This document shows, in pieces, positions 5,929 to 57,989 of a stretch of DNA of 64,000 nt (within the stretch, counting starts at the first letter, position 1; every line of letters starts with the position of its first letter). Origin of the DNA: Acidobacteriota bacterium (GTDB lineage: Bacteria > Acidobacteriota > CAIWXX01); NCBI GenBank assembly GCA_040755995.1, contig JBFMAF010000038.1, positions 1,593 to 65,592 on the forward strand, given 5' to 3'. Under the pieces are notes generated by a model that saw nothing but the letters and a program-made list of their open reading frames with translations, ran no database searches and had not been told where the DNA came from. Position numbers and translations under genes: made by a program.

Positions 5929-5976
5929 GACCGTGGCGGTGAAGCCAATCCCGATCGTCAAAATGGAGGTCAAGCA

Positions 5977-6888: not shown

Positions 6889-7029
6889 TGACCGCGCAGT
6901 CCATGCAGGCTTGGATAGGGCATGCTCATCGCCGAGAAGCCGGGATTCCCTGCGCCGCTCTTTCCTCTCGCCGCACGGGTCTTCGTGATCACAGCGCGAA
7001 CGGTGCATGCGCCGCAGTGCGATTGAGTC

Positions 7030-7093
7030 TCCCGATCCTTTCAGACGATATCGACGAGGTAGCTGATTGATCGTCAAGTGAGGAGGACATCCG
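7030..7093 (+). repeat. Second copy of the conserved SBBP-gene 5' leader (see 4150-4218)
   Basis: About 85% identity to 4150-4218, including RBS and spacing to ATG. Confidence 0.7.
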
Positions 7094-8782: not shown

Positions 8783-8911
8783 GAGTGTGCCGGTGTGCAG
8801 GCAGCGGGGCTTCTTCGCGATGTGGGGCTCCGAACAGCAGATGGGTTGGATGAGCGCCCCGTGTGCCCGTCTGGTACAGCCGGGGACCTACCAACTCTGG
8901 GAGGAGATCCA

Positions 8912-10636
8912 GTGAGACGGAGACACGATCCCTCGTACCACGGTCTGCATCTAACATCCCGCGCGCTGCTCGGGGTGTGCATTGTGTTCGGGCTTTCGGT
9001 GGCGCCGCCACCCCATGCGAGAGGTGATCCACCGACACGACTCACTGCGGACCGCGACCTGTCCAGTCTAGACAAGGGCGTTCCGATTGAGGAGCAGGCG
9101 CCCGGCTCAGCCTCCGTTGTGGACGGCGAGCTCGTCTGGAAAACCGTCTTCGGCGGATCCGGCCACGGAAGTGCCGCCGCGATAGCGATCGACACTGCCC
9201 AGAACTCCATCGTGGTCGGCCAAAGCGAAGCCGGCTGGGGCTCGCCCGTCAGGCCGTACGTAGGAGACTGGGATGCATTCGTGGTGAAATTCGATGCCAA
9301 CGGGACTCTCGTCTGGAACACGTTCCTCGGTCACGTCATGATGGATACTGGGGAGGGAGTCGCAGTCGATCACGAGGGGAGTATCTATGTGGTGGGTTCG
9401 AGCCATGTCGGCTGGGGCTCTCCGGTCAGGCCCTTCACAGCAACAGACGCCCATTTTGAAGACGCGTTTGTTGCGAAGCTGGACGCCGACGGAAATCTCG
9501 TTTGGAACACCTTCCTAGGCGGTTACGAAAGAGATTATGGCCTGGGGATCGATGTGGACCTCTCGGGGCACGCGTGCGTGGTGGGCTGCAGCTACGGCGC
9601 TTGGGGCTCACCCGTCAGGCCGTTTGCGGTGGGGGCCGATGGATTCGTGGCGAGGCTCGAGGCAAACGGGGCACTGGCCTGGAGCACGTTCCTCGGGGGT
9701 CCGGGTCATACAGAGACTACTGGGATCGGACTGGATTTGGGCGGAGCAGCATACGTGGGAGGGTGGTCAGACTACACCTGGGGCGTGCCAGTCAGGCCAT
9801 TTGCGGACTCGTTCGATGCCTTCGCTGCGAAACTGGATGCCAGCGGGGCCCTCATCTGGAACACGTTTCTAGGTGGCACCAACATGGACACAGCGCGCGG
9901 GATCGCGGTGGGCAGCGGTGGAAATGCATATCTGCTGGGATCCAGCTTGTCTGGCTGGGGGACACCGGTGAGACCCTTCACACCGAATGACCCGAGCTGT
10001 ATGGGCTACCTGGATGCGTTCGCGGCGAAGCTGGATGCAGGTGGGGAGCTTGTGTGGAACACCTTCCTCGGCGGTGGTTGCGAAGATGGCGGGGACGGGA
10101 TCACACTCGACACCAGCCAGAACGCCTACGTTGCGGGCGTTTCCAGCAGCGGCTGGGGCTCGCCCATCAAGCCGTTCGGGGGGGATTACGACGGGTTTGT
10201 TGCGAAAGTGGATGCAGGTGGTGCGCTCGTCTGGAACACGTTCCTGGGCGGCACTTCTCACGACACCGCAAACGGCGTCGGCTCCGACGGCACCGGGGTC
10301 CTCTATGTGACCGGCAACTGTCCTGGCGACTGGGGGGGCCCCGGGGGTGAGATGTATCTCGCCAAGCTCGCGCATGCCCCCCCTGGCCCCACTATCACAC
10401 AGATCAAGTCGAAGAAGGCCGCCAAGGGCAGTCCCGCAACGCTTGTCGGCACGGGCTTCTCCACGACCAAAGCCGACAACGTCGTCTACTTCGGCAAGAA
10501 GAAGGCCGAGGTCAAGACCGCCAGGACGACGAGACTCAAGGTGAAGATCCCGAAGAACTGCAAGAAGGGAAAGAACAACGTGTACGCGGTCGTCAATGGC
10601 GTCAAGAGCAACGTCGTCACGTTCACGGTGAAGTAG
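8912..10636 (+). CDS. Third secreted SBBP-repeat / IPT-TIG paralog. GTG start at 8912 is preferred over the upstream ORF start at 8795.
   Basis: RBS GGGAGGAG 6 nt upstream of GTG. Hydrophobic N-terminus, SBBP repeats, and a C-terminal IPT-like domain that is about 85-90% identical at DNA level to the other two copies (10375-10633). Confidence 0.7.
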   Translation: MRRRHDPSYHGLHLTSRALLGVCIVFGLSVAPPPHARGDPPTRLTADRDLSSLDKGVPIEEQAPGSASVVDGELVWKTVFGGSGHGSAAAIAIDTAQNSIVVGQSEAGWGSPVRPYVGDWDAFVVKFDANGTLVWNTFLGHVMMDTGEGVAVDHEGSIYVVGSSHVGWGSPVRPFTATDAHFEDAFVAKLDADGNLVWNTFLGGYERDYGLGIDVDLSGHACVVGCSYGAWGSPVRPFAVGADGFVARLEANGALAWSTFLGGPGHTETTGIGLDLGGAAYVGGWSDYTWGVPVRPFADSFDAFAAKLDASGALIWNTFLGGTNMDTARGIAVGSGGNAYLLGSSLSGWGTPVRPFTPNDPSCMGYLDAFAAKLDAGGELVWNTFLGGGCEDGGDGITLDTSQNAYVAGVSSSGWGSPIKPFGGDYDGFVAKVDAGGALVWNTFLGGTSHDTANGVGSDGTGVLYVTGNCPGDWGGPGGEMYLAKLAHAPPGPTITQIKSKKAAKGSPATLVGTGFSTTKADNVVYFGKKKAEVKTARTTRLKVKIPKNCKKGKNNVYAVVNGVKSNVVTFTVK

Positions 10637-13608: not shown

Positions 13609-13773
13609 CCGTCGGCCGGTTCGTCGCGCCCGCGCGACCCCCGTGCTTGCGGCGATGTCTAGGGTCCGTCTCCAAGCGCTTGATCAGAAGCAGCCGCATT
13701 CGAATCGGGCAACCTGCTTCACGGCACCGTCTATGGGCACGCGACTTGCATCCCGAGAGACAGGAGGCAAGCT

Positions 13774-14325
13774 TTGAGCAAGGTTGCGGTCACGCAATGG
13801 CTGGGTCGAGTGGCTCCGGTATTCGACACCGCTCGCCAGGTTCTGGTGGTCAATGTGCAAGACGGCTCGGCGGGCTCGCGTCAGGAAGAGGAGTTGCCGG
13901 ATGGAGGGCCCAGCCGCCGGATCCAGGCGCTCTGCGTCCTCGGGATCGACACGCTGATCTGCGGCGCCATATCGAGGCCACTCGCCGGGATGCTCCGCTC
14001 GTGCGGCATCTCGATCATTCCATTCGTGGCCGGATCGGTCGAGGAGATCCTGAAGGCCTACATCTCCGGGAGACTTCCGTCGCCACGGTTCGCCATGCCG
14101 GGATGTGCACAGGGGATACGACTTGGCGGCCGTGGGCCGGGCGGCCAGTGCGTCTGCCCAAGATGCGGTCACCGGGAGCTGCATCGGAGGGGCAGGCCGT
14201 GCAGTGGAGAGGCCTGTCCGGCGTGTGGGTCACAAATGATCAGAGAGGGAGGCCCCTCTCGCGGGAAAGGAGGAGTACCATGGCAGGACCAGCCAGCGAA
14301 GGGTTCGCGGAATGGGCAAGAATGA
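13774..14325 (+). CDS. NifX/NifB-type dinitrogenase FeMo-cofactor-binding domain (PF02579-like) protein with a fused C-terminal Cys4 zinc ribbon (CVCPRCGHRE...CSGEACPACG). TTG start.
   Basis: 'VAVTQWLGRVAPVFDTAR..LVVNVQDG....ICGAISRPL..GISIIPFVAGSVEEILKAY' matches the NifX/NafY fold signature. Zn ribbon homologous to the separate small protein at 18301-18519. RBS GACAGGAGG. Confidence 0.7.
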   Translation: MSKVAVTQWLGRVAPVFDTARQVLVVNVQDGSAGSRQEEELPDGGPSRRIQALCVLGIDTLICGAISRPLAGMLRSCGISIIPFVAGSVEEILKAYISGRLPSPRFAMPGCAQGIRLGGRGPGGQCVCPRCGHRELHRRGRPCSGEACPACGSQMIREGGPSRGKGGVPWQDQPAKGSRNGQE

Positions 14326-14621
14326 GCGGCCGTGGAGCCGGCTACTGCGGAGGAGCCGGCGCCGGAGGTTCTGCTGGGCGGGGCTCGCGCGTGCGGCACA
14401 CCCCAGGGCACGGCTGGCGCCACGTCTTCCGGACATCCTGGATTCCGGGATGGATGCGGTTCGGGCAGGAGTGGGAACCACTCTCGCCGGCCGGCCGCAC
14501 CGAGCTCACCCATGAGTCGGAGAAGGAGTACCTGCAGCAGGAGATCAGCGCACTCCAGGACCAGCTCGATATCGCCAAGAGACGCCTGGAAGAGCTCTCT
14601 GCTGCCGATCAGAAGAAGTGA
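14280..14621 (+). CDS. DUF5320-family protein (Gly/Arg-rich N-terminus 'MAGP...GRGAGYCGG', W-rich middle 'WRHVFRTSWIPGWMRFG', C-terminal coiled coil)
   Basis: RBS AAGGAGGAG. Paralog of 18550-18924. Lies in the C-terminal part of the longer track ORF 13647-14621, whose N-terminal part is considered spurious. Confidence 0.65.
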   Translation: MAGPASEGFAEWARMSGRGAGYCGGAGAGGSAGRGSRVRHTPGHGWRHVFRTSWIPGWMRFGQEWEPLSPAGRTELTHESEKEYLQQEISALQDQLDIAKRRLEELSAADQKK

Positions 14622-15041
14622 TGAAAGACTGAAGGCGAGGTGCCCGGGCATTCGCGAGTCCATAGGGGTGAGATGCGCCCGCGTCGAGCGGCACGTCCTC
14701 TCGCGAATGTCGATGCCTCACTGCGTCCGGTCTCCCACGAAGGGGGGCGCTGCGCGCAGGAGGCTCGGAGAACCCGAGCGGATCTCTTCATCGCGTCTCC
14801 CTGCCACGACGTATCACTGTCTACTACGATGGGGCGCCGCCACCCCGTCCGCTCCACCCCAACAAGTGGTCGGGGGACCGGGTCGATTGTCGACCCGCGC
14901 GGCGCATCTCGGGGAGGGCCGGTGAGCTGCGCTCCTCCGGTCTCACCGTCCCTCCCCATTCTTTTCGGGCCCTCGGAGCGGGCGTACCGGCTCGCACACC
15001 GCCCGTGCGACCGGCTATAATCGCCGCGAGGTGACGGAGGG

Positions 15042-15980
15042 GTGAGGTCGCGAATCGGAGTCGAAGCGGCGTTGGGCGCTCTCTGGTCAGTCTGGCTCGC
15101 CACCGCGGGATGTTGTGGTGGTGCGCCTCTCATCGTCGACACGGACATGGCCCTGGACGACGTACGGGCCATCGCCCTGCTCTCCAGTTCCAGGACCCTG
15201 GCCATCATTGCCGTCGTCACGTCTGACGGCTCGTCCGGCGCTCGAGCCGGATACGAGAGTGCAGTGAGGGTACTCCGGGCGCTGGGACTCGATCGTGTCC
15301 CGATCGGGATGGGCCCGTCGCTGGACGCGCCTCCACCCCCCTGGCGCGGGCTCTCCGAGGCGCTCGGATGGTCAGCCATCGTGTCATCGGGCCCCGGCAC
15401 ACAGCCTGCACAGCGCGAGCCGCCGGCGGACGCCGTCTCTGTGATTGCCGGCGCATTGCGCGACTCAGCCGCGCCCGTTGACTACGTCTGTCTGGGACCG
15501 TTGACCAACCTCGCACAGCTGATTCATGAGAAGCCGGAGCTGGCGACTCGAATCGCGAGAGTCCTGTATGTCGGATCGACGAGGCCCGATCCGACTCCGG
15601 GTTGGAACACGCTTCGCGACCCGTCCAGCACCGATCGGGTCTTCGGCGCCGACATCGCGATCTGCGCGTTCGACATGGATGATCCGGATGTGCTCAGATT
15701 CGATTCCGGCCTGTGGCAGGAGGTAGGGCACGTCGAATCAGCCGCAGCGCAGCTGATCTATGGCCTGCATCGCGACAGTCGCGTCCAGGCGCTGCTGAGG
15801 GAGCGGCACTTCCGAGCGTGGGATGAGACAGTCCCCCTCTACCTGCACGACCCTGCCATCGCGCATCCTGAACCGTTCCCTGGCCGGCCGCGGGGGATCA
15901 GGATCGGTGCCGTCGACGTCGATGCCGCACGAAACGCCTACTTGGCGATCCTGAAACAGCGTCGATCGGGACGGCCATGA
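15042..15980 (+). CDS. Inosine-uridine-preferring nucleoside hydrolase family protein
   Basis: N-terminal 'LIVDTDMALDDVRAIALL' (DxDxxxDD motif of IU_nuc_hydro). Confidence 0.7.
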   Translation: MRSRIGVEAALGALWSVWLATAGCCGGAPLIVDTDMALDDVRAIALLSSSRTLAIIAVVTSDGSSGARAGYESAVRVLRALGLDRVPIGMGPSLDAPPPPWRGLSEALGWSAIVSSGPGTQPAQREPPADAVSVIAGALRDSAAPVDYVCLGPLTNLAQLIHEKPELATRIARVLYVGSTRPDPTPGWNTLRDPSSTDRVFGADIAICAFDMDDPDVLRFDSGLWQEVGHVESAAAQLIYGLHRDSRVQALLRERHFRAWDETVPLYLHDPAIAHPEPFPGRPRGIRIGAVDVDAARNAYLAILKQRRSGRP

Positions 15981-16137
15981 TCGCCCGAAAGGCTTCGGCC
16001 GAGCCCGCATCGACCAGCACGTGCGACCACAACCGTGCGTCTGACCGGCTTTCCGCGCGTTCGCAGTGCGGCAGCCGGGGTTTCGTTTGAGCCGTTGCTT
16101 CGCACACGACCTGTGCCATTAAGCAAGGAGATACCAC

Positions 16138-17403
16138 ATGGAAGCGTCCAATCGACCTGAGTACTTGAGGAAGCACTTCTATCTGGATTGCGGATTCGCC
16201 ACGCGTGCCCTGCACGCCGGCGAGCACATCGGGCAACCGCATTTCACGAATCACACCAACGCCATCTTTCAAACATCGACATTCACATTCGAGACGGCAA
16301 AGGACGGTGCGGACCTGTTCGCCGCTCGGAAGGAGGGCTTCGTCTACACGCGCATGGGCAACCCGACGGTGCTCGTGCTCGAAGCGAAGCTCGCGGCCCT
16401 CGAAGGCTGCTCGTACAAGCTGGCGCACCCCGAGAAGACCGTGTCGTGCATCGCGTTTTCCTCGGGGATGGCCGCCATCTCCTCCACGATGATGGCCATG
16501 CTGCGCCCCGGCGACACCTTGATCGCCGGGCAGGTTCTCTATGGTGCCACGGAGGATTTCTTCCGGACCGTGCTGCAGCCGCTCGGGATACGCTGGGTGC
16601 CGATCGAGACATCGGACCTGGACCTTGTGGAGGCCGCGTTGCGCGAGCACGAGCGCGCACGTGCCGTCTACTTCGAGACGCCGACCAATCCCTTGATGGG
16701 GGTCACCGACATCCGGGCGCTATCGAATCTCGTGCGCAGCGTCAGGCCCGACTGCCACATTGTCGTGGACAACACGTTCGCTACGCCGTTCCTGCAGAGA
16801 CCGCTGGAGCTCGGCGCAGACGTGGTGCTGCATTCCACGACCAAGTACATCTGCGGGCACGGTACCGTGATCGGTGGAGCCGTCATCACGGTGGACGACC
16901 AGGTGCGCGCGCACCTCTACCACATGATGAAAGACTTCGGCGGCTGCCCGTCGCCGTTTGATGCGTGGCTCGTGAACACGGGCTTGAAGACACTGCCCCT
17001 GCGAATGCGCCAGCATTGCGCCAACGCCCAGGGCATCGCCGAGTTCCTCGAGCGGCACCCGAAGGTGGATCGCGTCTTCTACCCGGGGCTGCCCTCCTCG
17101 CCACAGCACGATCTCGCGAAGAGGCAAATGAGCGGGTTCGGGGGTATTCTGTCCTTTGAACTCAATGGCGGCTACGGGGCTGCCGAGAAGGTCATGAACG
17201 GCGTGCGGCTGTTCACGCTGGCCGTCTCCCTGGGCTGCGTCGATTCGCTGATCCAGCATCCGGCCTCCATGACCCACGCCATGATTCCGCGTGAAGAGCG
17301 AGAGCGCAGCGGCATCTCCGATGGGCTGCTTCGTCTCTCGGTCGGGGCCGAGGATCTGAACGACCTGCTGGGCGACCTCGAGAGCGCGCTCGGCGGCGCG
17401 TAG
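16138..17403 (+). CDS. PLP-dependent Cys/Met-metabolism enzyme, methionine gamma-lyase / O-acetylhomoserine sulfhydrylase family
   Basis: '...[16 protein letters not shown]...' and the PLP-lysine region '[16 protein letters not shown]'. 421 aa, RBS AAGGAGA. Confidence 0.85.
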
Positions 17404-17674
17404 CGAAGACCGGTCAACACCGGGCTCCCATTGATGGGGGAGGCGGCGCGGCATGGAAGGAGGTGACACGATGGCTCTGCGCTATCACCATACCTGATTC
17501 AGTGCGGGCGGAATGCACGGGATGCATTGGCTGTCCGGAGCTGCTGCGCCGTGCGTGCCACCTGCCGGCAGCGTCACCGCCTGTCTTCTCCGTTGTTGAT
17601 CGCCCTCCAGACGCCGCCGAACGAGGCCTCGACGTGCGCAGCCCAAACACCAACCGACAACGAAGGACTGTGGC

Positions 17675-18025
17675 ATGGCTGATCCCTCAAGCGTCGTCTT
17701 CGTCTTCAACTCCTACGGCATGGGCCATACCGAGAATGCCGATCTCAAGCTCGTCCTGGCCAAGAAGGCCCTGACGATTCTGGCGACCATGGAACCGCCG
17801 CCTCGGCGAATCTGCTTCTACGCAGACGGTGTCAAGCTCTGCGTGAGAGGTTCGCCCGTACTGGGCGAGCTCCACGCCCTGATGCGCCTCGGTGTCGAGC
17901 TATTGCTGTGCTCGACCTGCATCGAGGCGCTCGGCCTGAAGGATCACGTGGCCGTCGGGACAGTCGGCGGCATGGACCAGATGATCACGACCATGGTGAG
18001 CGGCAGTCACGTCGTCACACTGTGA
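17675..18025 (+). CDS. DsrE/DsrF(TusD)-like small sulfur-relay-fold protein (tentative)
   Basis: 116 aa. 'VVFVFNSYGMGH', '...LLLCSTCIEALGL...' with conserved Cys, similar to DsrE/DsrF-like proteins. First gene of the long + strand cluster. Confidence 0.45.
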   Translation: MADPSSVVFVFNSYGMGHTENADLKLVLAKKALTILATMEPPPRRICFYADGVKLCVRGSPVLGELHALMRLGVELLLCSTCIEALGLKDHVAVGTVGGMDQMITTMVSGSHVVTL

Positions 18026-18300
18026 CGGCGCGGCATGCAGTAGCGGAAACGCGACCCATCGAGTCGGCATCAGTAGCCTCAGGGCGACAGGGGTCGACCC
18101 TTGTTCGAAGGCCGAATGTCACTAGAACCAGGTTGATCAGACGACTAGCGGTCCTTGGAACCCAGCCCAAAGCCGCTGGCATCGGCTTTGCAAGAGAACG
18201 GGTGGGAGATGAAAGGCGGGCACAGTCGCATGTGTGAGATACGCGATCGTGGCATCAAACGCCGGCGGTGTGCCACGCCGATTCGACAGGAGGAACGATC

Positions 18301-18519
18301 ATGATTGGAAGAAGAGGAAGCAGAGAGGGTGGCCGCCGCGCGGGCGGGCAGGGCCGGGGCGGTCGGGGTCTCGGCCGGATGGGCGGAGCTTTCGCAGCCG
18401 GCCCAGGCGGCAACTGCGTCTGCCAGCAGTGCGGCCATCGCGAGTCACATCAACGCGGAGTGCCCTGCACCGGACGGATGTGTCCCAAGTGCGGCACAGC
18501 CATGACAAGAGAACCATGA
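18301..18519 (+). CDS. Small Gly/Arg-rich protein with a Cys4 zinc ribbon (CVCQQCGHRE...CTGRMCPKCG)
   Basis: RBS CAGGAGG. Zn ribbon homologous to the C-terminal fusion on the 13774-14325 protein. Confidence 0.5.
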   Translation: MIGRRGSREGGRRAGGQGRGGRGLGRMGGAFAAGPGGNCVCQQCGHRESHQRGVPCTGRMCPKCGTAMTREP

Positions 18520-18549
18520 CGACATAGCGATGACAAGGAGAACAACATC

Positions 18550-18924
18550 ATGCCAAGAGGTGACAGAACGGGGCCCGTGGGGATGGGTCCGATGACGGGG
18601 CGCGCTGCAGGGTACTGCGCGGGGCTCGGTGTGCCCGGCTATTCGAATCCCGCTCCCGGACGGATGTTCCGGGCGGGAGTCGGAATGGGCGGAGGAGGAC
18701 TGGGCCGCGGGTTCGGCGGCGGTGGTCGCGGATGGCGACACTGGTTCCACGCCACTGGTCTGCCCGGTTGGATGCGATTCGGTGGGTGGGCGGCACCCTA
18801 CGCGAAGCCTGACCGCGAATCGGAGAGGCGCACACTGCGGAATGAAGCACAGGCCTTGAAGGCCACCCTGGACTCGATCCAGAGTCGACTCTCCGAGCTG
18901 GAGGCCGGTCCAGACAAGCCGTGA
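18550..18924 (+). CDS. DUF5320-family protein (MPRGDRTGPVGMGPMTGRAAGYCAG..., WRHWFHATGLPGWMRFGG, coiled-coil C-terminus)
   Basis: RBS AAGGAGAA. The N-terminal 'MPRGD.TGP.GMGPMTGR..GYC' is the hallmark of DUF5320. Paralog of 14280-14621. Confidence 0.7.
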   Translation: MPRGDRTGPVGMGPMTGRAAGYCAGLGVPGYSNPAPGRMFRAGVGMGGGGLGRGFGGGGRGWRHWFHATGLPGWMRFGGWAAPYAKPDRESERRTLRNEAQALKATLDSIQSRLSELEAGPDKP

Positions 18925-18995
18925 ACCCGTGGAGAGGAATCCGTACCGGTGACTCTGACCACCAGTCCGAAGCAAGACGCTGCGGGGAGGATACG

Positions 18996-19358
18996 ATGAA
19001 GATTGCCTTCAGTACGTCGGGGCAGACCCTCGATGCCCCTCTGGACGGGCGTTTCGGCCGGGCGCCGAGGTTCCTCGTGTACGACGTCGAGCGTGCCGAT
19101 TTCAAGATCGTCGACAACACACAGGCATTCGATGCGATGCAAGGAGCAGGCGTCCAGGCGGCGGAGACAGTCACACGTGCAGGGGCGGGCTGCGTTGTGA
19201 CGGGGCACTGCGGGCCGAAGGCCTTCCGGGTCCTCTCTGCTGCCGGCATCGAGGTCTACACGACCGGCGCAGCCAGCGTGGCCGAGGCCCTGGAGCTCTT
19301 CCGCTCTGGGAAGCTCGTGCCCGCCACGGGTCCGGACGTGGATGGGCACTGGGCATGA
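18996..19358 (+). CDS. NifX/NifB-type dinitrogenase FeMo-cofactor-binding domain protein
   Basis: 'MKIAFSTSG..LDAPLDGRFGRAPRFLVYDVE...GAGCVVTGHCGPKAFRVLSAAGIEVYT' is a textbook NifX-like signature. Start chosen at the internal ATG with RBS GGGGAGG. Confidence 0.8.
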   Translation: MKIAFSTSGQTLDAPLDGRFGRAPRFLVYDVERADFKIVDNTQAFDAMQGAGVQAAETVTRAGAGCVVTGHCGPKAFRVLSAAGIEVYTTGAASVAEALELFRSGKLVPATGPDVDGHWA

Positions 19359-19882
19359 GGGCGACCGACCGAACTCTTCGGAGCGTCACTTACAAGCCGA
19401 TCGGCACAGTGCGGAGCGAGCATCGAGATCCCGAGCGGACGCCGATCCAGCCGACCCATGCGAGAGGTTGCAGGGGCCGCCTGCAGATTCGCCCGGAGGT
19501 GGCCGCAGGACTGAAGGACCTGGACGGTTTCTCTCACATCCTGCTGATCTACCACCTTCACAAGGCAGGCGGGCCGATGCTGACGGTGAGGCCGTTCATG
19601 GACGAGGCTGAAAGAGGTGTCTTTGCGACGAGGCATCCACGGCGCCCGAACGCCATCGGCATCAGCGTCGTGCGGCTTGTTCGGATCGAAGGTGAGACTT
19701 TGTACGTCGACGATCTGGACATTCTCGACGGCACGCCACTGCTCGACATCAAACCCTTCGTCCGCAGGTTCGACACGGTCGGGACCTCCCGTGACGGATG
19801 GGCGGGGCGGGTGGATGAGAGGACGGCCAGGCTGAGGGGTCGCAGAGGTTGTCGAAGGAGCCGGTCATCGGACCGGCGTTGA
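19355..19882 (+). CDS. TsaA/TrmO (YaeB, UPF0066) family tRNA-methyltransferase-like protein
   Basis: 'GFSHILLIYHLHK', 'GVFATRHPRRPNAIGISVVRLVRIEGETLYVDDLDILDGTPLLDIKPF'. ATG overlaps the upstream stop (ATGA). Confidence 0.75.
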   Translation: MRATDRTLRSVTYKPIGTVRSEHRDPERTPIQPTHARGCRGRLQIRPEVAAGLKDLDGFSHILLIYHLHKAGGPMLTVRPFMDEAERGVFATRHPRRPNAIGISVVRLVRIEGETLYVDDLDILDGTPLLDIKPFVRRFDTVGTSRDGWAGRVDERTARLRGRRGCRRSRSSDRR

Positions 19883-19887
19883 CGACG

Positions 19888-20766
19888 ATGAGCAAGAAAT
19901 TCGTCATCGCGGTTGCCTCGGGAAAGGGCGGGACGGGCAAGACGACCGTGGCTGTCAATCTTGCCCGTGTGCTGCCGGACCCGGTGCAGCTGATGGACTG
20001 CGACGTCGAGGAGCCGAACTGCCATCTGTTCCTGGACGGGGCGACCAGGGGCCAGGAGGAGGTCCATATCCCAGTGCCCGCAGTTGACGAGTCGCTCTGC
20101 GATGCCTGCGGCGAATGCAGCCGGATTTGCCAGTACCATGCCATCGTGTCGCTCAAGACCAAGCCTCTCCTGTTCCACGACCTCTGCCACGGATGTGGCG
20201 GATGTGCACGGGTCTGCCCTCCAGGTGCGATCCGCGAAGTGGGCCACCGCATCGGGGTCATCGAGACGTCGACGTCGGATCGCATCACCCTGATCCAGGG
20301 GCGGCTGGACGTCGGTGTCCCAACTGCCCCGCCGTTGATCCGCGCCGTGAGGGACCGTCGCCGGGACGACATGCCTGCCATTCTGGATGCGCCGCCCGGA
20401 ACCTCGTGCCCGGTCATCACGACCGTCAGAGACTCGGACTTCGTGCTGCTTGTCGCCGAGCCGACCCCGTTCGGATTGCACGACCTGGAGCTGGCGATCG
20501 AGCTTGTGCGGCAGCTGCGGATACCGTTCGGAGTCATGGTCAATCGTGCGGGGTCTGGAGACGAACGCGTTCGCACGCTCTGCCAAGACGAAGGAATCGA
20601 GATACTGCTGGAAGTGCCGGAAGATCGTAGAGTCGCCGAGAGCTGCTCGAGAGGCGAGATCCTGGTGGATGTGCTGCCGGAGTACCGGCGGCTCTTCGTG
20701 CGGCTGCTGGAGACGGTCCTGGAGCGGTGCAACCGGGCAGAAGGAGCCAGACATGCCCACGTATGA
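19888..20766 (+). CDS. MinD/ParA-superfamily P-loop ATPase with inserted 4Fe-4S dicluster ferredoxin domain
   Basis: Deviant Walker A 'SGKGGTGKTT'. Two CxxCxxCxxxCP motifs (CDACGECSRICQYHAI; CHGCGGCARVCPPGAI). Confidence 0.8.
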   Translation: MSKKFVIAVASGKGGTGKTTVAVNLARVLPDPVQLMDCDVEEPNCHLFLDGATRGQEEVHIPVPAVDESLCDACGECSRICQYHAIVSLKTKPLLFHDLCHGCGGCARVCPPGAIREVGHRIGVIETSTSDRITLIQGRLDVGVPTAPPLIRAVRDRRRDDMPAILDAPPGTSCPVITTVRDSDFVLLVAEPTPFGLHDLELAIELVRQLRIPFGVMVNRAGSGDERVRTLCQDEGIEILLEVPEDRRVAESCSRGEILVDVLPEYRRLFVRLLETVLERCNRAEGARHAHV

Positions 20767-21016
20767 GTATGAGTGCGGGAGATGCGGTCACAGGTTCGAG
20801 CGCATGCAGTCAATCACCGATGCGCCTCTCGAACGATGCCCCGAGTGCGACGGAGAGATCCGGCGCCTGGTGAGCGGCGGGGCCGGGTTCATCATCAAGG
20901 GGGGCGAGGCGGGTCGCCCCGGTTCTCACGCAGGCGACTGCGCTATCGAGCAGCGCGGGCAGACCTGCTGCGGCCGTGAGGAGCGGTGCGACAAGCCGCC
21001 GTGCGGGGGCAGATGA
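20753..21016 (+). CDS. FmdB-family zinc-ribbon small protein with Cys-rich C-terminal tail
   Basis: 'MPTYEYECGRCGHRFE...CPECDG' is the FmdB (CxxC..CxxC) signature. Tail '...GDCAIEQRGQTCCGREERCDKPPCGG'. RBS GAAGGAG. Confidence 0.7.
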   Translation: MPTYEYECGRCGHRFERMQSITDAPLERCPECDGEIRRLVSGGAGFIIKGGEAGRPGSHAGDCAIEQRGQTCCGREERCDKPPCGGR

Positions 21017-21969
21017 TCACACAGCATGCGGCCGGGCACGTCTACGGTCCCGTCTCTTCACGACGTCTGGGCAGATCCCTTGGCGTGGACCTGGTCCCCT
21101 TCAAGACCTGCACGTATGATTGTGTCTACTGCCAGTTGGGCCGCACCACAGACAAGACGACGGTTCGTACCGAATACGTGCCGGCCGATATGGTGTTCGA
21201 TGAGCTGCAGGCAAAATTGGCGACCACGAAGGCTGTCGACCATGTGACAATCGCCGGTTCCGGCGAGCCGACATTGAACTCCCGGGTGGGCGATCTCGTC
21301 ACAAGGATCAAGGCCCTCACGAGCATCCCGCTGGCCGTCCTGACAAACGGATCGCTCCTGTGGATCCGCGACGTGCAAGACGCACTCATGGACGCAGACC
21401 TGGTCCTCCCCTCGCTCGACGCCGGCGACGAGAACCTCTTCAGGTACGTGAACCGACCGCACAGCGACATTCGCTTCGCGACGATGGTCGATGGCCTCGT
21501 GCAATTCAGGGAGCGCTTCTCCGGACGTCTCTGGCTCGAGGTGTTCCTGCTCGGAGGGGTCACGGGAATCCGCCCGGAGGTCGAGAGGATCGCGGCGCTT
21601 GTGCAGCGGATTCGACCTGAGCGAGTCCAGCTCAACTCCGTCTCTCGGCCTCCATGCGAGGATTTCGCCTTCCCCGTGCCTGCAAGACAGATGGAGGGGT
21701 TCGCAGATCTGTTCGAAGTAGGTGCTGAAGTCGTCTGCGTCGAAAGAGGCGAAGGGGAAGGTGAGATTGTGGAGGCGAGTTCGGTGACCGACGAGGCGAT
21801 CCTGGCCCTGCTGAAGAGACGGCCGTGCACCGCCAGAGGGGTCGCTAGGGGGCTCGGCATCCATCTCAGCGATGCGACCAAACGATTGCACCGGCTGGCG
21901 CAGCAGACCGAGGTCAGACTGCTCCGCAGGCACAGGAGACTCTTCTACTGGGTCGACAACACACCATGA
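21013..21969 (+). CDS. Radical SAM protein (CTYDCVYC). ATG at 21013 overlapping the FmdB stop is preferred; the track ORF starts at 20986.
   Basis: 'YGPVSSRRLGRSLGVDLVPFKTCTYDCVYCQLG' is a CxxxCxxC core with the upstream GPV.SRRLG motif seen in small COG0731-type radical SAM enzymes. Confidence 0.8.
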   Translation: MITQHAAGHVYGPVSSRRLGRSLGVDLVPFKTCTYDCVYCQLGRTTDKTTVRTEYVPADMVFDELQAKLATTKAVDHVTIAGSGEPTLNSRVGDLVTRIKALTSIPLAVLTNGSLLWIRDVQDALMDADLVLPSLDAGDENLFRYVNRPHSDIRFATMVDGLVQFRERFSGRLWLEVFLLGGVTGIRPEVERIAALVQRIRPERVQLNSVSRPPCEDFAFPVPARQMEGFADLFEVGAEVVCVERGEGEGEIVEASSVTDEAILALLKRRPCTARGVARGLGIHLSDATKRLHRLAQQTEVRLLRRHRRLFYWVDNTP

Positions 21970-22898
21970 CCAGAGAGCTTGTCGTCGTGAGCGGCAAAGG
22001 CGGAACAGGGAAGACGAGCCTCGCCGCGTCCTTCGCGGCCCTGGCGCGCCGTCCGGTGATCGCGGACTGCGATGTCGATGCGGCGGACCTGCATCTGGTT
22101 CTGACACCGCGAGTCGTCGAACGGCACGAGTTCTGGAGCGGCCACGAGGCCGTGGTCCGAACGGCGGACTGCACACTCTGCGGTGCCTGTCTCGGGGACT
22201 GCGGCTATGGAGCGATCAGGATGGAAAACCAGCAGGACGGCAGGGCGACCTTCTCGGTGGATCCTCTGTCGTGCGAGGGGTGCGGTGTCTGCGTGCGATT
22301 CTGCCCGGCACAGGCGATGGATTTCCGCGAGAGATTGTGCGGCGAGTGGATGGTGTCGGAAACCCGCTGCGGACCGATGGTCCACGCACAGTTGGGGATC
22401 GCCGCCGAGAACTCCGGCAAGCTCGTCTCGACCGTCCGGCGCGCGGCGCGCCGCATCGCCGAGGACAACGGTCATCCCCTGGTCATCGTCGATGGGCCGC
22501 CGGGGATCGGATGCCCGGTCATTGCGTCGATCACCGGCGCGGATGCCGTGCTGGTGGTCACCGAGCCCACACGGTCCGGAGAACACGATCTTCGACGAGT
22601 AATCGAGCTGTCTCGTCACTTTCAGATCCCCTCGTGGGTGTGCGTGAACAAGAGCGACATCAATCCTGAGCTGACGGTGCGAATCGAGGCGGAGGCACGG
22701 AGCATGGGATGTGAGGTCGCCGGGCGGATTCCCTGGGATCCGTCCGTCACCGGCGCCCAGCTCGCAGGCGCCTCCGTGGTCGAGTACGGCAACGGACCCG
22801 CCGCCAGCGGCATCCGGAGCATCTGGGAGAGGCTGGAGCATGTCGTTCTGCTCGGAGCCCCTGGTGAAAGGAAACTCGCTGCGGCGGCGGAATCTTGA
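21966..22898 (+). CDS. Second MinD/ParA-type P-loop ATPase with 4Fe-4S dicluster domain
   Basis: 'SGKGGTGKTS'. 'CTLCGACLGDCGYGAI' and 'CEGCGVCVRFCPAQAM'. ATG overlaps the radical-SAM stop. Confidence 0.8.
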   Translation: MTRELVVVSGKGGTGKTSLAASFAALARRPVIADCDVDAADLHLVLTPRVVERHEFWSGHEAVVRTADCTLCGACLGDCGYGAIRMENQQDGRATFSVDPLSCEGCGVCVRFCPAQAMDFRERLCGEWMVSETRCGPMVHAQLGIAAENSGKLVSTVRRAARRIAEDNGHPLVIVDGPPGIGCPVIASITGADAVLVVTEPTRSGEHDLRRVIELSRHFQIPSWVCVNKSDINPELTVRIEAEARSMGCEVAGRIPWDPSVTGAQLAGASVVEYGNGPAASGIRSIWERLEHVVLLGAPGERKLAAAAES

Positions 22899-24069
22899 TG
22901 CCGTCGAGGAGGATGTGCGACGCTGCCTTCACCGGGACCTGCGCCATTTCTGGTTCATCTGCTCGGAGCTGAACAACCTCGGCCGCGAATTCGCCCTCGT
23001 CCTGGCGGAGCGGATGCTGCGGATGAACGAGCAACGCGGCTCCGACCGGTTCACGTGGAAGTCGTACATGTTGCCGCGCTCGTTCTCGCAGAGCGATTTC
23101 GATCTCCTCTACAGATCGGGGTTCGTCACGACGTGGAATCCGGTCGAGTCGTTCGATGACGCCCAGCTCGCCCTGTCGCGCTCGCCCTACAGCGCGCGCG
23201 ACGCGTCGCTCTTCCTGGGGCGCGACTTTCGCGCGAGAAGGAAGCACGGTCGCTTGCCGCCATTGCCTGTGTCTATCTTCCTGGGCGACCAGCACCTGAC
23301 CCCGGAGTCGCTCTCGCGTTGCGTCCAGCGCTTCAACCGCGAGCGCCTCTGGAGAGTCTGCGGCGGCGCAGTGGCAGTCCACGCCCTTCGCGTCTGGGAC
23401 TTCGAATCCCAGGGCGTACCGGAAGGGGAGGCGGTCACGTTCGCTCCCGAGGGGACTGGACGCCTCGATCTCGCCCACCCAACGTATCACTTTCCGGCGG
23501 AACTGCTGCGCGACTTCGGCAGCCGCGAGGCCGTGATGGTCCTCCACGATCGTCTCCTCTCGACGTTCTTCTCGCATGGGCACCGGAATCGGCCGGAGTG
23601 GTGCCGGTTCCTGGCTCGACACGCATCGCCCACCACACTGCATCGGGAATTGCTGCGCATCGGAAGCGAGGCCGTGCTCAAGGATCCTTCCGTCGAAACG
23701 CTTCGCGATCTCATGACGCCGTCACGCGACAACGAGGCGAGCTGCGAGGCCGTGGCAGAGCGCCTGCTCGGACTGCTCCGGCGGGCGTATCGACGGGACC
23801 TCGAGCGGATCTACCGGTTCCTGGAGATTCCCTCCGACCGGCGGGGGAGGATTGCGATCGACGAGTACGACCTGCACGAAATTCTTTATCGGAAGTTCGA
23901 GACCACGGAAGGGCTCCTAGCCGCCGTGAAACGGCGGTTCCGCCAGCGAACCGGCTCGACGCTCCTCCTGCTGTTTCGTTCAGAGCTCCATCGCCGAAAC
24001 GTCCTGCTGGACCCGCTGCACAGGAAATGGATCTTCCGGCATCTCGACCGACCAGGTTCATCGATATGA
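22840..24069 (+). CDS. Hypothetical protein resembling the post-Cys-motif half of a B12-binding radical SAM enzyme, but lacking the B12 domain and the CxxxCxxC triad
   Basis: 'SLRRRNLDAVEEDVRRCLHRDLRHFWFICSELNN' aligns by eye with 'RKTRYHSVERVLDEIEYVSRKGLRRFWFADPSF' of the bona fide B12-rSAM at 46048-47352. The start overlaps the MinD gene end. Weak call. Confidence 0.35.
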   Translation: MSFCSEPLVKGNSLRRRNLDAVEEDVRRCLHRDLRHFWFICSELNNLGREFALVLAERMLRMNEQRGSDRFTWKSYMLPRSFSQSDFDLLYRSGFVTTWNPVESFDDAQLALSRSPYSARDASLFLGRDFRARRKHGRLPPLPVSIFLGDQHLTPESLSRCVQRFNRERLWRVCGGAVAVHALRVWDFESQGVPEGEAVTFAPEGTGRLDLAHPTYHFPAELLRDFGSREAVMVLHDRLLSTFFSHGHRNRPEWCRFLARHASPTTLHRELLRIGSEAVLKDPSVETLRDLMTPSRDNEASCEAVAERLLGLLRRAYRRDLERIYRFLEIPSDRRGRIAIDEYDLHEILYRKFETTEGLLAAVKRRFRQRTGSTLLLLFRSELHRRNVLLDPLHRKWIFRHLDRPGSSI

Positions 24070-24752
24070 CGACACACGCCATCATCGGAGGAATGGGGCC
24101 GCTCGCCTCGGCCGCGTTCCTACAAACCATCTACGAAAATCACGGCTGGGATCGCGAGCAGGAGCTGCCGGATATCCTGCTCCATTCGCTTTCCTCGGTC
24201 CCCGACCGCACTTCCACCTTGCTGTCCGGGCGGGACGATCTCCTCCTCGAACGCCTGCGGTGCGCGCTGCGGCAGGTCAACCTGCTTGATCCCGCATCGA
24301 TCGTGATCTGCTGCGTGACGTCTCATCATCTCCTCGACCGCCTGCCGGAGGAGATTCTGCCGAAGATCATCTCGCTCACCGACACGGCGCTGAAGACCGT
24401 TGCGGCGAAAGGCGAGCGCGCACTTCTCCTGGCCACCCGCGCCACCTATGAGCTGCGCGTCTTCGAACGGAGCCGGCACTACGCGGCGGCCGCGCCGCTG
24501 ATCGTGACACCCGAGCCGGCGGATCAGGAGCGCGTGCACGCGATGATCTATGACGATCTCAAGAAAGGCCGGCGGATCGCAGAAACAGCCGACGCACTTG
24601 CGGCCATGACCGCGCGGTACGGAGTCGGCGCGTTCATCGCCGGCTGCACCGAATTCCATCTGGTGACGCGTCATCTCCGGAAGAACCGCGTGGCGACGCC
24701 TTCCTTTATCGATCCGCTGATGACGATCGCTGACAAGGAGATGAGGGCATGA
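24066..24752 (+). CDS. Asp/Glu/hydantoin racemase family protein (aspartate racemase-like)
   Basis: 'IGGMGPLASAAF', 'CCVTSHH', 'AGCTEFHL' are the two catalytic-Cys motifs of the family. ATG in frame inside the long track ORF. Confidence 0.7.
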   Translation: MTTHAIIGGMGPLASAAFLQTIYENHGWDREQELPDILLHSLSSVPDRTSTLLSGRDDLLLERLRCALRQVNLLDPASIVICCVTSHHLLDRLPEEILPKIISLTDTALKTVAAKGERALLLATRATYELRVFERSRHYAAAAPLIVTPEPADQERVHAMIYDDLKKGRRIAETADALAAMTARYGVGAFIAGCTEFHLVTRHLRKNRVATPSFIDPLMTIADKEMRA

Positions 24753-26605
24753 GTCCGGCTTACTCGAACGCCACTCTGCGGGAGAGGATCGTCGAGCTCG
24801 TCGGGGACGTCTCGGGGCTCAGTCCCTCCTCGATCGATCCAAACGCCAACTTCTTCAGCCTCGGACTGAACTCCCTGATGTTCATGCAAATCCGGGACCG
24901 GATCGAGAGGGAGCTCGGCGTCGAGCTTGCGGTGAGCCAGTTCACTAACGATGTCTCAACGCTGGTGAAGCTGACCGGATACCTGGAGGAGCGGCTCGCA
25001 CTCGTTCCTTCCTCCGAATCTCAGCCGCCGCCAGTTCCGGATCGCTCCGATCAGACCGGACGGACTGGGGAGACTTCCCTCGACCTTTCATCACTCTCGG
25101 GGCTCGATACGCTCTTTCGCCGCCAGCTCGATGTACTGGAGCGGCAGAACGAGATCCTGCTCTCCGCCTTCCTCAACGGCGGCGGTGCGGCCCCCGCTCC
25201 GTCCCGCCCCGCGCCGGCTCCCCCCGGGAAGGCCTACGTTCCCTTCAAGGCGATCGTGACGTCGCGTTCCTCCGGCGTTGCCCAGGAGCATGTCGAAGCA
25301 CTCGCGCGGCTCCTGGGCGAGAAGTGCAAGTCGACGAAGGACCTTACCCAGAAGCATCGTCGCGTCTTCGGCAATAATCGCGCCATCGCCGGGTTCCGGC
25401 CAGATTGGAAGGAGATGGTCTATCCGCTCATCGCCGCCCGTGCGGACGGCTCGCGGATCTGGGATCCTGACGGGAACGAATACATCGACCTCACTATGGG
25501 CTTCGGCGTGGCGCTCTTCGGCCACAACCCCGCGTTCGTGATGGAGGCGATCCGGGCGGAGCTCGCAAACGGCATGCCACTCGGCCCGCTCTCGCCGCTG
25601 GCGGGGGAGGTTGCGGAGCTCATCGCCGAGCTTACCGGAGTCGAGCGCGTGGCCTTCTTCAACTCGGGTACCGAGGCCGTGATGGTGGCACTCAGGCTCG
25701 CCCGGACTGTGACTGGCCGCGCCAGGGTCGCGATCTTCTCGGGTTCCTTTCATGGAAGCTTCGACGGCATACTTGCGATCCGCGGCGCGGGCGGCAGGAC
25801 GCTGCCCATGCTGCCGGGCAGTCCCGCGGGCATCGTCGCCGATGTCATCGTTCTCGACTACGACGATCCGGCCTCGCTGGATTACGTGGCGGCGCACGGC
25901 GGGGAGCTGGCAGCGGTCCTCGTCGAACCGGTGCAGAGCCGTCATGTCGAGATCCAGCCGCGCGACTTCCTGCACCGGCTCAGGGAGCTGACCGCCGCGT
26001 CCGGAACCGCGCTGATCTTCGACGAGGTCATCACTGGCTTCCGGATCCATCCGGGCGGCGCGCAGGCCAGGTTCGACGTGCGCGCTGACATCGTAACCTA
26101 CGGCAAGATCATCGGCGGCGGGCTTCCGATTGGGATCGTGGCCGGTCGCGCCGAATTCATCGACGCGGTGGACGGAGGGATGTGGCAATACGGCGACGAA
26201 TCCTATCCCGCGAAGAAGAACACCTTCGTGTCTGGGACCTTCTGCCACCATCCCCTCGCGATGGCCGCCGCGCGCGCCGTGCTTCTTCACCTCAGGAGAG
26301 AGGGCCCGAAGCTCCAGGAGGACCTGAATCAGCGCACCGCGGCGTTCGTGACCCGCATGGCCGATCTGTTCAGGGACAGGAGCTGGCCGATCCGCATCGC
26401 CTGCTTCGGCTCGCTCTTCAGGATGGATCTCATGCCGGATCACGAGCTCCTCTACTACCACCTGCTTGACAAGGGCGTCTATGTCTGGGAGGGCCGCAAC
26501 TGCTTCCTCTCGACCGCGCATTCAGACGGCGACATCGAAGCGATCGAAACGGCGATCCGCGCATCCGCGGAGGCCATCGAGCGGGCCGGGCTCTTCCACC
26601 ACTGA
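24749..26605 (+). CDS. Fusion of an N-terminal acyl/peptidyl carrier protein domain to a class-III (glutamate-1-semialdehyde aminomutase-like) PLP aminotransferase
   Basis: N-terminus 'FFSLGLNSLMFMQIRDRIE' (PP-binding, Asn instead of the usual Asp before the Ser). Body 'FNSGTEAVMVALRLAR', 'FDEVITGFR', 'YGKIIGGGLPIG' (PLP-Lys region). ATG overlaps the racemase stop. Confidence 0.8.
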   Translation: MSPAYSNATLRERIVELVGDVSGLSPSSIDPNANFFSLGLNSLMFMQIRDRIERELGVELAVSQFTNDVSTLVKLTGYLEERLALVPSSESQPPPVPDRSDQTGRTGETSLDLSSLSGLDTLFRRQLDVLERQNEILLSAFLNGGGAAPAPSRPAPAPPGKAYVPFKAIVTSRSSGVAQEHVEALARLLGEKCKSTKDLTQKHRRVFGNNRAIAGFRPDWKEMVYPLIAARADGSRIWDPDGNEYIDLTMGFGVALFGHNPAFVMEAIRAELANGMPLGPLSPLAGEVAELIAELTGVERVAFFNSGTEAVMVALRLARTVTGRARVAIFSGSFHGSFDGILAIRGAGGRTLPMLPGSPAGIVADVIVLDYDDPASLDYVAAHGGELAAVLVEPVQSRHVEIQPRDFLHRLRELTAASGTALIFDEVITGFRIHPGGAQARFDVRADIVTYGKIIGGGLPIGIVAGRAEFIDAVDGGMWQYGDESYPAKKNTFVSGTFCHHPLAMAAARAVLLHLRREGPKLQEDLNQRTAAFVTRMADLFRDRSWPIRIACFGSLFRMDLMPDHELLYYHLLDKGVYVWEGRNCFLSTAHSDGDIEAIETAIRASAEAIERAGLFHH

Positions 26606-26649
26606 GAGCTACCGAGGCCACGCCCTCCACGTCAACGCCCGTTTCCGTC

Positions 26650-26668
26650 GTCAACAACGGTTGACATC
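26650..26668. promoter_or_regulatory. Motif GTCAAC-N4-GTTGACATC (contains -35-like TTGACA). Recurs at 62541-62559, with a wider-spaced variant at 62388-62434.
   Basis: Exact recurrence read from the sequence in two intergenic regions. Confidence 0.3.
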
Positions 26669-26707
26669 CTGAAGGGCCGGCCCGTTCCAAGGTTCCAAGA
26701 CCAAGGC

Positions 26708-26736
26708 TTGACGTCCGAGGCGATTTGTCCTAGATT
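26708..26736 (+). promoter_or_regulatory. Candidate sigma70-type promoter for the ABC exporter: TTGACG, 17-nt spacer, TAGATT
   Basis: -35/-10-like hexamers with canonical spacing about 65 nt upstream of the 26800 start, in a 190-nt intergenic gap after a long coupled operon. Confidence 0.35.
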
Positions 26737-26799
26737 CGTCAAATGTTCACGACCGAAATCGAAGTCATTGGATTATTCTAGCGCTGGCGTGGCCGTCCA

Positions 26800-40261: not shown

Positions 40262-40554
40262 GTCTAAAACCTCCTCGTACACCGTTCAGTCATCAGGATG
40301 TGCAAGCGAGGTGCCAGGTCGACGGTGAGCGGCTTCAAGCACTTACCCGCCGCTCGCCACTTGACGCGGCGTCCTCTGTGAAGGACAGCAGCGGCTCGGG
40401 CCCATCTAACGGACAGAGAACACAGGCCGAGCCCCCGTCCAACGGTGGGGACAGTCGCTGCTGGATTTGCCACATCCTGCGTCGTGTCGCCGTACGTCCC
40501 GGCTCATGCCGGGGCGTCGCTGTGGGCCACATCACCGCTTCGATGCGCTGCGAA

Positions 40555-57791: not shown

Positions 57792-57989
57792 GTAACACCT
57801 CTCATCCTGAAGTTCGCCAAGTTCAGCAGATAACGTAGCACATGATCTCGAACCTTTCAAAGGGAAACTGTGCGTCGTGCGCGCCCAACGCACTGCGTCA
57901 GAATCGCAGCACGCTGCGAAACTCGGATTGGGGGCAGTCCATCCACGGGCAGTTGAAATCCCGCAGCCCGGCGAATATGCTCTGACTAG

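Follow-up and report, generated by a model that had tools for sequence, protein, structure and literature searches.

The window analysed here, i.e. a 64-kb stretch of DNA (64,000 nucleotides) on contig JBFMAF010000038.1 of an Acidobacteriota metagenome-assembled genome (MAG), carries a set of genes, designated A, B and E–M throughout (Table 1), which appears from its sequence to be an unremarkable example of the orange protein (ORP) gene cluster, widespread in anaerobes and with a core studied in Desulfovibrio. This cluster probably handles iron-sulfur (Fe-S) or other metal-sulfur clusters. The genes were called from a six-frame listing of open reading frames (ORFs) together with Pfam and NCBIfam profile searches of the window; all cluster genes lie on the + strand, and the identical proteins in NCBI are named as coming from an Acidobacteriota MAG.

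Table 1 Genes, promoter-type motifs and neighbouring features, with positions as numbered in the window
Feature	Position	Strand	Description
Gene A	13774-14325	+	NifX fold (Nitro_FeMo-Co, PF02579, 37.8 bits), Gly/Arg linker and C-terminal ribbon
Gene B	14280-14621	+	DUF5320 (PF17253, 52 bits); overlaps the 3' end of A
Gene F	18301-18519	+	small Gly/Arg-rich ribbon protein; 0 Pfam/NCBIfam matches
Gene G	18550-18924	+	DUF5320 (PF17253, 85.9 bits)
Gene H	18996-19358	+	single-domain NifX fold (PF02579, 81.8 bits) of the ORP/MTH1175 class; Orp8 equivalent
Gene I	19355-19882	+	TrmO_N/TsaA-type (PF01980, 133.5 bits; TIGR00104, 112.7 bits)
Gene J	19888-20766	+	MinD/ParA-type ATPase (CbiA/ParA) with an inserted 2x[4Fe-4S] ferredoxin domain; Orp3/Orp4-type
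Gene K	20753-21016	+	FmdB-type zinc ribbon (Zn_ribbon_8/FmdB, PF09723, 62.4 bits)
Gene L	21013-21969	+	compact radical SAM (PF04055, 52.3 bits; CTYDCVYC) with a C-terminal winged helix
Gene M	21966-22898	+	second MinD/ParA-type ATPase with an inserted 2x[4Fe-4S] ferredoxin domain
Sigma-54-type -24/-12 motif GGGCACGCGACTTGCA	13735-13750	+	24 nt 5' of A; an AGGAGG Shine-Dalgarno sequence then follows
Sigma-54-type -24/-12 motif TGGCATCGGCTTTGCA	18177-18192	+	109 nt 5' of the F ATG, 3' of gene E
Gene E	17675-18025	+	DsrE-like (Pfam DsrE, 28.3 bits; cut-off 22.7)
IU-nucleoside-hydrolase-like and methionine gamma-lyase-like genes	15042-17403	+	between B and E (14622-17674 interval)
409-aa ORF	22840-24069	+	overlaps the 3' end of M
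Amino-acid racemase, aminotransferase fusion and ABC exporter genes	24030-28446	+	
DUF6600 gene	39212-40282	-	
Perfect sigma-54 consensus TGGCACCTCGCTTGCA	40301-40316	-	immediately 5' of the DUF6600 gene
SBBP, B12-binding radical SAM and AdhE-type genes, as one group	4219-10636 (+); 46048-47352 (-); 55179-57893 (-)		

The profile searches bear out, at their places, the domains named in a sequence-only reading of this DNA, i.e. NifX-like, DUF5320, DsrE-like, TsaA-like, MinD-ferredoxin, FmdB and radical S-adenosylmethionine (SAM) enzyme. The ATGA overlaps given there are real as well, their coordinates having been checked (H/I at 19355, K/L at 21013 and L/M at 21966), and the coupled run drawn from 17675 to 22898 stands for genes F–M, the intergenic gaps of which are all ≤71 nt, but not for E, separated from F by ~275 nt that include a sigma-54-like site. 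The zinc ribbons, taken in that reading for the Cys4 type, contain six conserved Cys and a His instead, while the absence of nitrogenase was seen correctly, since neither nifHDK nor nifEN was present among the window ORFs of at least 250 amino acids (aa) scanned with Pfam. Concerning the starts, 18301 is the most likely one for F because of its good Shine-Dalgarno sequence, 18268 being the alternative; the start of J agrees with that of NCBI, and an alternative start of B at 14322 would create an ATGA overlap with A.

The layout would be best explained by two sigma-54-type transcription units, A–B and F–M, as part of a reading that is, taken as a whole, fairly probable. An Rfam scan of the whole window revealed no riboswitch or other RNA family, a scan of 13–25 kb for sigma-70 promoters and terminators gave nothing above background, and no further copies of any cluster family were seen in the window.

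Gene order and sigma-54-type sites in related loci

Thousands of proteins from anaerobic lineages are related to the radical SAM protein L, at ~60% identity. An alignment of 18 of them was used to fetch 80 genome loci from ~15 phyla which, with one complete genome added, form a comparison set of 81 loci anchored on L; all the ORFs of these loci were scored with hidden Markov models made from the window proteins. The recurring order is NifX+ribbon / ribbon / DUF5320 / NifX / TsaA-like / MinD-ferredoxin / FmdB / radical SAM / MinD-ferredoxin / Mrp+NifX, the last gene (MrpORP) often closing the row after the second MinD-ferredoxin gene, and it is seen most clearly in L034, L045, L031, L018, L043, L064 and L073. 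Where the full 10-kb flanks were available (38 loci), MinD-ferredoxin occurs in 34, NifX in 33, DUF5320 in 29, the ribbon in 27, FmdB in 24 and the TsaA-like gene in 18; in the entire set, the family of J is found in 68/81 loci and the ribbon family of F in 45/81. The NifX+ribbon architecture of A is represented by 30 genes in the related loci, in which NifX+ribbon followed by DUF5320 makes a recurrent pair, and the overlap between the NifX and TsaA genes, as seen for H/I, recurs too. The claim of a recurring, co-transcribed and metal-cluster-related set with no assigned physiological function is supported.

The cluster is present in the Acidobacteriota loci L009, L013, L015, L021, L044, L057 and L076, and the gene order is shared by Vicinamibacteria, Bryobacteraceae and other MAGs of this phylum as well as by ~15 other phyla. 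Since several of the syntenic loci come from Acidobacteriota, the cluster is not unusual for them, and the view that its occurrence in such a high-GC genome is an oddity was not upheld.

As far as accessory genes within the related clusters (L001–L081) are concerned, those for a class I SAM methyltransferase (19), an ARMT1-like/DUF89 phosphatase (15) and a pyruvoyl-dependent arginine decarboxylase (14) were observed, along with NifU_N (8), a metallo-beta-lactamase (8) and a DUF134-like gene 5' of the first NifX gene. None of the 25 accessory families found most often in these clusters is a nif family, nor is any protease or exporter conserved near L there. In the cultured sulfate reducer Desulforhabdus amnigena (L157, 7802–11858), the succession OrpR-like activator / NifX+ribbon / DUF5320 / ARMT1-like / DUF5320 makes up a separate unit adjoining V-type ATPase genes, and a module of the A–B type can therefore stand alone.

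The orp operons of Desulfovibrio vulgaris Hildenborough depend on sigma-54 and are controlled by the PAS-containing activator OrpR (PMC8359166, PMC3897727). With the site model TGGCAC-N5-TTGCW and at most one mismatch allowed, three sites were detected in the window, two of them on the + strand directly 5' of A and F. This count is not significant in itself (3 vs 1.3 expected), so that the support for sigma-54 comes from the position of the motifs together with the related loci. In the latter, 35 of 61 sites are situated ≤400 nt upstream of a same-strand cluster gene, vs 9.1% of the strand space (P 3e-21), and an upstream site precedes 18 of the 30 NifX+ribbon genes (P ~1e-26). Sigma-54 activators with a PAS domain, resembling OrpR, are encoded inside 10 related clusters, and a further one directly 5' of the NifX+ribbon/DUF5320 unit in D. 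amnigena; among the window ORFs of at least 250 aa, no Sigma54_activat protein (OrpR) was found. A perfect consensus is situated immediately 5' of the DUF6600 gene (Table 1). The 9-mer TTGATCAGA occurs at 13680–13688 and 18133–18141, i.e. 44–55 nt upstream of both sigma-54 motifs, and IHF sites are said to be at about the same position in the orp promoters of D. vulgaris Hildenborough; with ~0.6 chance matches expected, the 9-mer was not counted as evidence.

Relation to the orange protein system and to IssA

The named members of the ORP set in Desulfovibrio are Orp3, Orp4, Orp5, Orp7, Orp8, Orp9 (MrpORP) and the regulator OrpR. Orp3 and Orp4 are MinD-ferredoxin ATPases, Orp8 is the orange protein itself, Orp9 corresponds to MrpORP and OrpR is the sigma-54 activator (PMC6345978, PMC8359166). 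Orp3, Orp4 and Orp8 co-purify, MrpORP hands Fe-S clusters over to Orp3/Orp4 (PMC6345978), and expression of the orp operons is restricted to low redox potential (PMC8359166).

The window protein H has its best PDB match in 2WFB, the ORP from Desulfovibrio gigas (E 1.8e-19, ~39% identity over residues 2–114 of 120), which ranks ahead of MTH1175 and TM1290. Both J and M contain the deviant Walker A motif GKGGTGKT and two CxxCxxCxxxC motifs each. In the syntenic loci, all 10 of the 10 Mrp+NifX fusions tested exceed the NCBIfam cut-off for MrpORP (NF041136), with 497–534 bits vs 450. The window thus shares with D. vulgaris Hildenborough and D. gigas the ORP-type NifX protein (H), two paralogous MinD-type ATPases with 2x[4Fe-4S], promoters of the sigma-54 type and the occurrence in anaerobes, and the syntenic clusters elsewhere carry, like Desulfovibrio, bona fide MrpORP and PAS-sigma-54 activators. 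It differs from them in having no MrpORP, OrpR or Orp5-type gene, and in the arrangement, the genes running in one direction in two units, whereas the Desulfovibrio orp genes form two divergent operons. Compared with the ORP descriptions consulted, the extra conserved members are the NifX+ribbon protein, the ribbon protein, two DUF5320 proteins, the TsaA-like protein, FmdB and the radical SAM enzyme.

The set is therefore not the undescribed system it had been taken for, as its core is the cluster studied in Desulfovibrio and the best solved relative of H is the D. gigas ORP. The sequence-only reading had also allowed that the gene order might turn out to be that of a characterised pathway: the neighbourhood comparison did lead to a recurring order and a known kind of cluster, but not to a functionally assigned pathway. 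In the literature searched, no functional assignment was found for the bacterial ORP system, nor anything on the gene order of the cluster via DUF134/MTH1175 or the Pfam/InterPro accessions.

Among the extra members, L reaches no specific NCBIfam cut-off and possesses only one invariant Cys beyond the triad of the SAM cluster, with no SPASM/twitch auxiliary-cluster domain and no Cys-rich SPASM motifs. A profile search against PDB sequences assigned a winged helix-turn-helix to its C-terminus, the radical SAM match in this search being marginal, and Foldseek, run with an AF2 model (pLDDT 77), placed pyruvate formate-lyase activase first, followed by viperin, MoaA, TYW1 and NifB. These fold matches are generic, all at ~17% identity, and no subfamily was therefore assigned. 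Two candidates were rejected, i.e. TYW1, for which L scores 27.7 bits vs the TIGR03972 cut-off of 317.95, and NifB, given that no NifB model is among the NCBIfam matches, that there is only the one extra invariant Cys, and that the window ORFs scanned include no nif genes.

Protein I shares with TrmO (YaeB/TsaA), the class VIII SAM-dependent tRNA m6t6A methyltransferase, the beta-barrel TrmO_N fold and the four residues contacting SAM—Q32, R93, D122 and K133 align to Q22, R82, D111 and K122 of AF0241. It differs from TrmO in that it is of the archaeal type, is translationally coupled to a NifX-fold gene and has, in its 175 aa, no DPRxxY motif; the C-terminal domain with this motif is required for m6t6A, and the archaeal homologs, also without the domain, have no known m6t6A (PMC4132733). 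The automatic name TrmO is doubtful for I, as that domain is missing.

The remaining small proteins are cationic or Cys-rich. Protein G is 60–72% identical to proteins from many phyla and has an invariant Cys as well as the conserved motifs MPRGDRTGP...GRAAGYCAG and GGGGRGWRHWFYATGLPGWMRFG. In its AF2 model (overall pLDDT 57), residues 1–88 are predicted to be disordered though conserved, while 89–118 form a single confident helix; the N-terminal part has 32% Gly, 11% Arg+Lys, 13% aromatic residues and an isoelectric point (pI) of 11.7. The N-terminal part of F is also Gly/Arg-rich (pI 12). The ribbon of A and F follows the motif C-x-C-x2-C-G-x4-H-x2-G-x-P-C-x4-C-P-x-C-G, conserved in the related loci, where it is always C-terminal with a Gly/Arg-rich stretch always before it; the NifX domain of A belongs to the 'GRVxPVFD...LICGAIS' class. 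As for K, an alignment of 46 orthologs demonstrates the C-terminal motif C-x7/8-TCCGRxERC-x4-C to be conserved across phyla, and the gene is directly upstream of L in 39/81 loci.

A link with IssA is suggested by gene fusions. IssA from Pyrococcus furiosus is a NifX-fold thioferrate storage protein with a cationic, Gly/aromatic-rich and unstructured tail (PMC5524996). Its two elements have counterparts in the window, with the NifX fold (IPR003731 in IssA) present as PF02579 in A and H, and the NifX–DUF5320 fusions of some lineages have an IssA-like architecture: the ORP-type NifX is fused to a (GMGRG)n segment and the DUF5320 helix in L081, L006, L014 and L039, Pfam confirming that of L081 (38.8 bits). 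In L039, one ORF (1515–2438) encodes the ORP-type NifX, a Gly/Arg segment resembling DUF5320 together with its helix, and a 2x[4Fe-4S] ferredoxin. Unlike in IssA, the cationic segment in the window is a separate protein with a helix and an invariant Cys of its own; H lacks a tail, in A the ribbon is preceded by no more than a short Gly/Arg linker, and the tail-like segments are the separate proteins G, B and F. No relevant literature on DUF5320 was found. By analogy, DUF5320 as an IssA-like cationic partner of the NifX-fold carriers may be put forward as a testable idea.

Genes beside the cluster and the paired genes

Judging from the comparison of loci, the DsrE-like, nucleoside hydrolase-like and methionine gamma-lyase-like genes are not conserved parts of the cluster. 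Gene E, counted in the sequence-only reading as one of the set, was rejected as a member, since its family is found in 0/81 syntenic loci and its own homologs have no ORP context. These homologs (34–62% identity) were traced in 74 metagenome loci, in which they have no consistent neighbours and only one MinD-ferredoxin and one TsaA-like gene represent the ORP type nearby. The protein is a stand-alone DsrE-like one containing a CSTC motif, and it matches best the C-terminal half of YedF, a family associated with selenium, the 69 bits scored against TIGR03527 being below the cut-off of 110. The nucleoside hydrolase-like gene was not found in the 81 related loci. In 5/81 loci, a gene resembling that for methionine gamma-lyase is situated no more than 10 kb from the ortholog of L, which seems more than chance would give and may point to a connection with sulfide or SAM salvage.

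The paired genes, previously regarded as a local duplication, are, to judge by their divergence, old paralogs rather than recent copies. B and G are 33% and J and M 32% identical, the ribbons of A and F share 62% over 34 residues, and hardly any alignment is possible between the NifX domain of A and that of H, which show no significant likeness; moreover, both classes co-occur in other genomes.

Downstream, the 409-aa ORF following M matches a B12-binding radical SAM family only weakly and in part (TIGR04072, positions 194–284). It contains neither a B12 domain nor CxxxCxxC, is absent from the 81 related loci, and is probably a truncated remnant. It is followed by genes for an amino-acid racemase, a carrier (PCP) domain fused to a class-III aminotransferase resembling glutamate-1-semialdehyde aminomutase, and an ABC exporter, which together seem to be a small biosynthetic set dependent on a carrier protein and without relation to the ORP genes. 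Other window genes encode three SBBP beta-propeller paralogs, of which two have a TIG domain as well, an enzyme of the B12-binding radical SAM type and an AdhE-type bifunctional aldehyde/alcohol dehydrogenase, the latter two fitting an anaerobic or fermentative lifestyle of the Acidobacteriota MAG.

Proposed function and its alternatives

The explanation considered best here, somewhat better than an even proposition in our judgement, is that of an extended ORP cluster acting as a metal-sulfur handling system, by steps that we infer for this organism. It starts from the observed domain identities, gene order, promoter motifs and fusions, while complex formation, cluster binding and redox/sigma-54 control would be carried over from homologs. 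An OrpR-like activator encoded outside the window would switch on both units under strongly reducing conditions. J and M would then form a nucleotide-dependent heterodimer docking the ORP-type NifX carrier H, with H and A holding an anionic inorganic metal-sulfur species, for which an Fe-S cluster or part of one, a polymer resembling thioferrate or a cluster of the thiomolybdate type come into question. The cationic proteins G, B and F, which probably oligomerise via the C-terminal helix or ribbon, may stabilise this species electrostatically, as has been proposed for the IssA tail. ATP hydrolysis by J/M, together with electron transfer, would drive the loading, remodelling or hand-over of the cluster, and L, K (its Cys-rich partner of the FmdB type) and the SAM-binding I could be conserved accessory enzymes modifying either the bound cluster or a small Cys-rich protein.

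Several points weigh against this explanation. No MrpORP, OrpR, Orp5-type or NifU-type gene is present in the 64-kb window, so that either the set there is incomplete or its genes are dispersed over the genome. J and M have the same architecture as Orp3/Orp4 according to the published account (PMC6345978), the match being one to that description and not to the DVU2103/DVU2104 sequences. The published physiological hint, moreover, is not cofactor handling, the ORP complex being described as 'putatively involved in cell division' (PMC6345978). DUF5320 is likened to the IssA tail on the basis of composition and fusions, not of sequence homology, and an action of I, K and L on a metal cluster is purely our inference. 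As regards the metal species bound in Desulfovibrio, the Mo-Cu cluster with which the orange protein is purified may not be the physiological one.

A more far-reaching version of the explanation, which we regard as rather unlikely, would see in the extended ORP cluster a line by which strict anaerobes assemble and store a complex or polymeric metal-sulfur species independently of nitrogenase; in it, L, K and I would modify the cluster or its scaffold, J/M would have a NifH-like role driven by ATP and electrons, and DUF5320 and the ribbons would be polycationic wrappers of the IssA type acting in trans.

Among the competing views, one compatible with the metal-sulfur explanation is that K is the substrate or obligate Cys-rich partner of L in a peptide or protein maturation module, following the logic of SCIFF and its maturase or that of an activase, which would serve the ORP proteins. 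The ATGA coupling of K to L, the position of K directly 5' of L in 39/81 loci, its cross-phylum Cys motif and pyruvate formate-lyase activase—acting on a protein—as the best structural match of L speak for it; the lack of a SPASM/twitch domain in L, with its one further invariant Cys, the absence of a conserved protease or exporter nearby and the generic nature (~17% identity) of the structural matches make it unlikely all the same. Still less probable is a device for cell division or positioning, in which J and M at the poles or the membrane would regulate septum placement or morphology, their Fe-S clusters being redox sensors only. Besides the published hint cited above, MrpORP is polar and a MinD-like C-terminal amphipathic helix has been attributed to Orp3/Orp4 (PMC6345978). 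J and M indeed match MinD models, but weakly, with 50–57 bits for the MinD equivalog, far below its cut-off of 202, and the conserved partners are not of the MinC/MinE/FtsZ type, but NifX-fold proteins, Mrp/NifU Fe-S carriers, radical SAM enzymes and small Cys-rich proteins.

It is very improbable that I and L are ordinary tRNA-modification enzymes, i.e. TrmO (m6t6A) and a TYW1-like 'wyosine synthetase', merely located among the ORP genes. Although I exceeds TIGR00104 (TrmO) with 112.7 bits vs 93.25 and JGI names the orthologs of L 'wyosine synthetase', I is of the archaeal type without the DPRxxY domain and without known m6t6A (PMC4132733), L stays at 27.7 bits vs the TYW1 cut-off of 318, and both are translationally coupled to ORP genes in a position kept across phyla. 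We give the least credence of all to a nitrogenase-type pathway, with a cofactor like NifB-co or FeMo-co made for a nitrogenase, or an enzyme like it, whose genes lie in another part of the genome. The logic of NifB, NifX and NifH is mirrored by the NifX-fold carriers, the radical SAM enzyme and the Fe-S SIMIBI ATPases related to NifH, the building blocks being in principle those of NifB/NifX/NafY/NifH assembly, and NifB structures are found among the fold matches of L. Unlike in nitrogenase assembly, however, nitrogenase genes are missing from the window ORFs scanned, NifB is neither among the models matched by L nor first among its fold matches, and the ATPases have ferredoxin inserts instead of a bridging cluster. 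The scores of the window proteins for nitrogenase cofactor equivalogs are all far below the cut-offs, H reaching 22 bits vs 112 for NifX, and no nif family belongs to the 25 commonest accessory families of the related clusters.

The ORP system, first described in Desulfovibrio, is among the most conserved anaerobe-specific gene sets, its proteins being 60–70% identical across phyla. The window itself offers nothing categorically new and is no more tractable than many other genomes bearing the cluster. The comparison of loci, however, extends the list of ORP parts by the NifX+ribbon protein, the ribbon protein, DUF5320, the archaeal-type TrmO-fold protein, the FmdB protein with its Cys motif and the compact radical SAM enzyme. 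If DUF5320 is an IssA-like partner, this would link bacterial storage and trafficking of Fe-S or thiometallate species to the archaeal IssA system.

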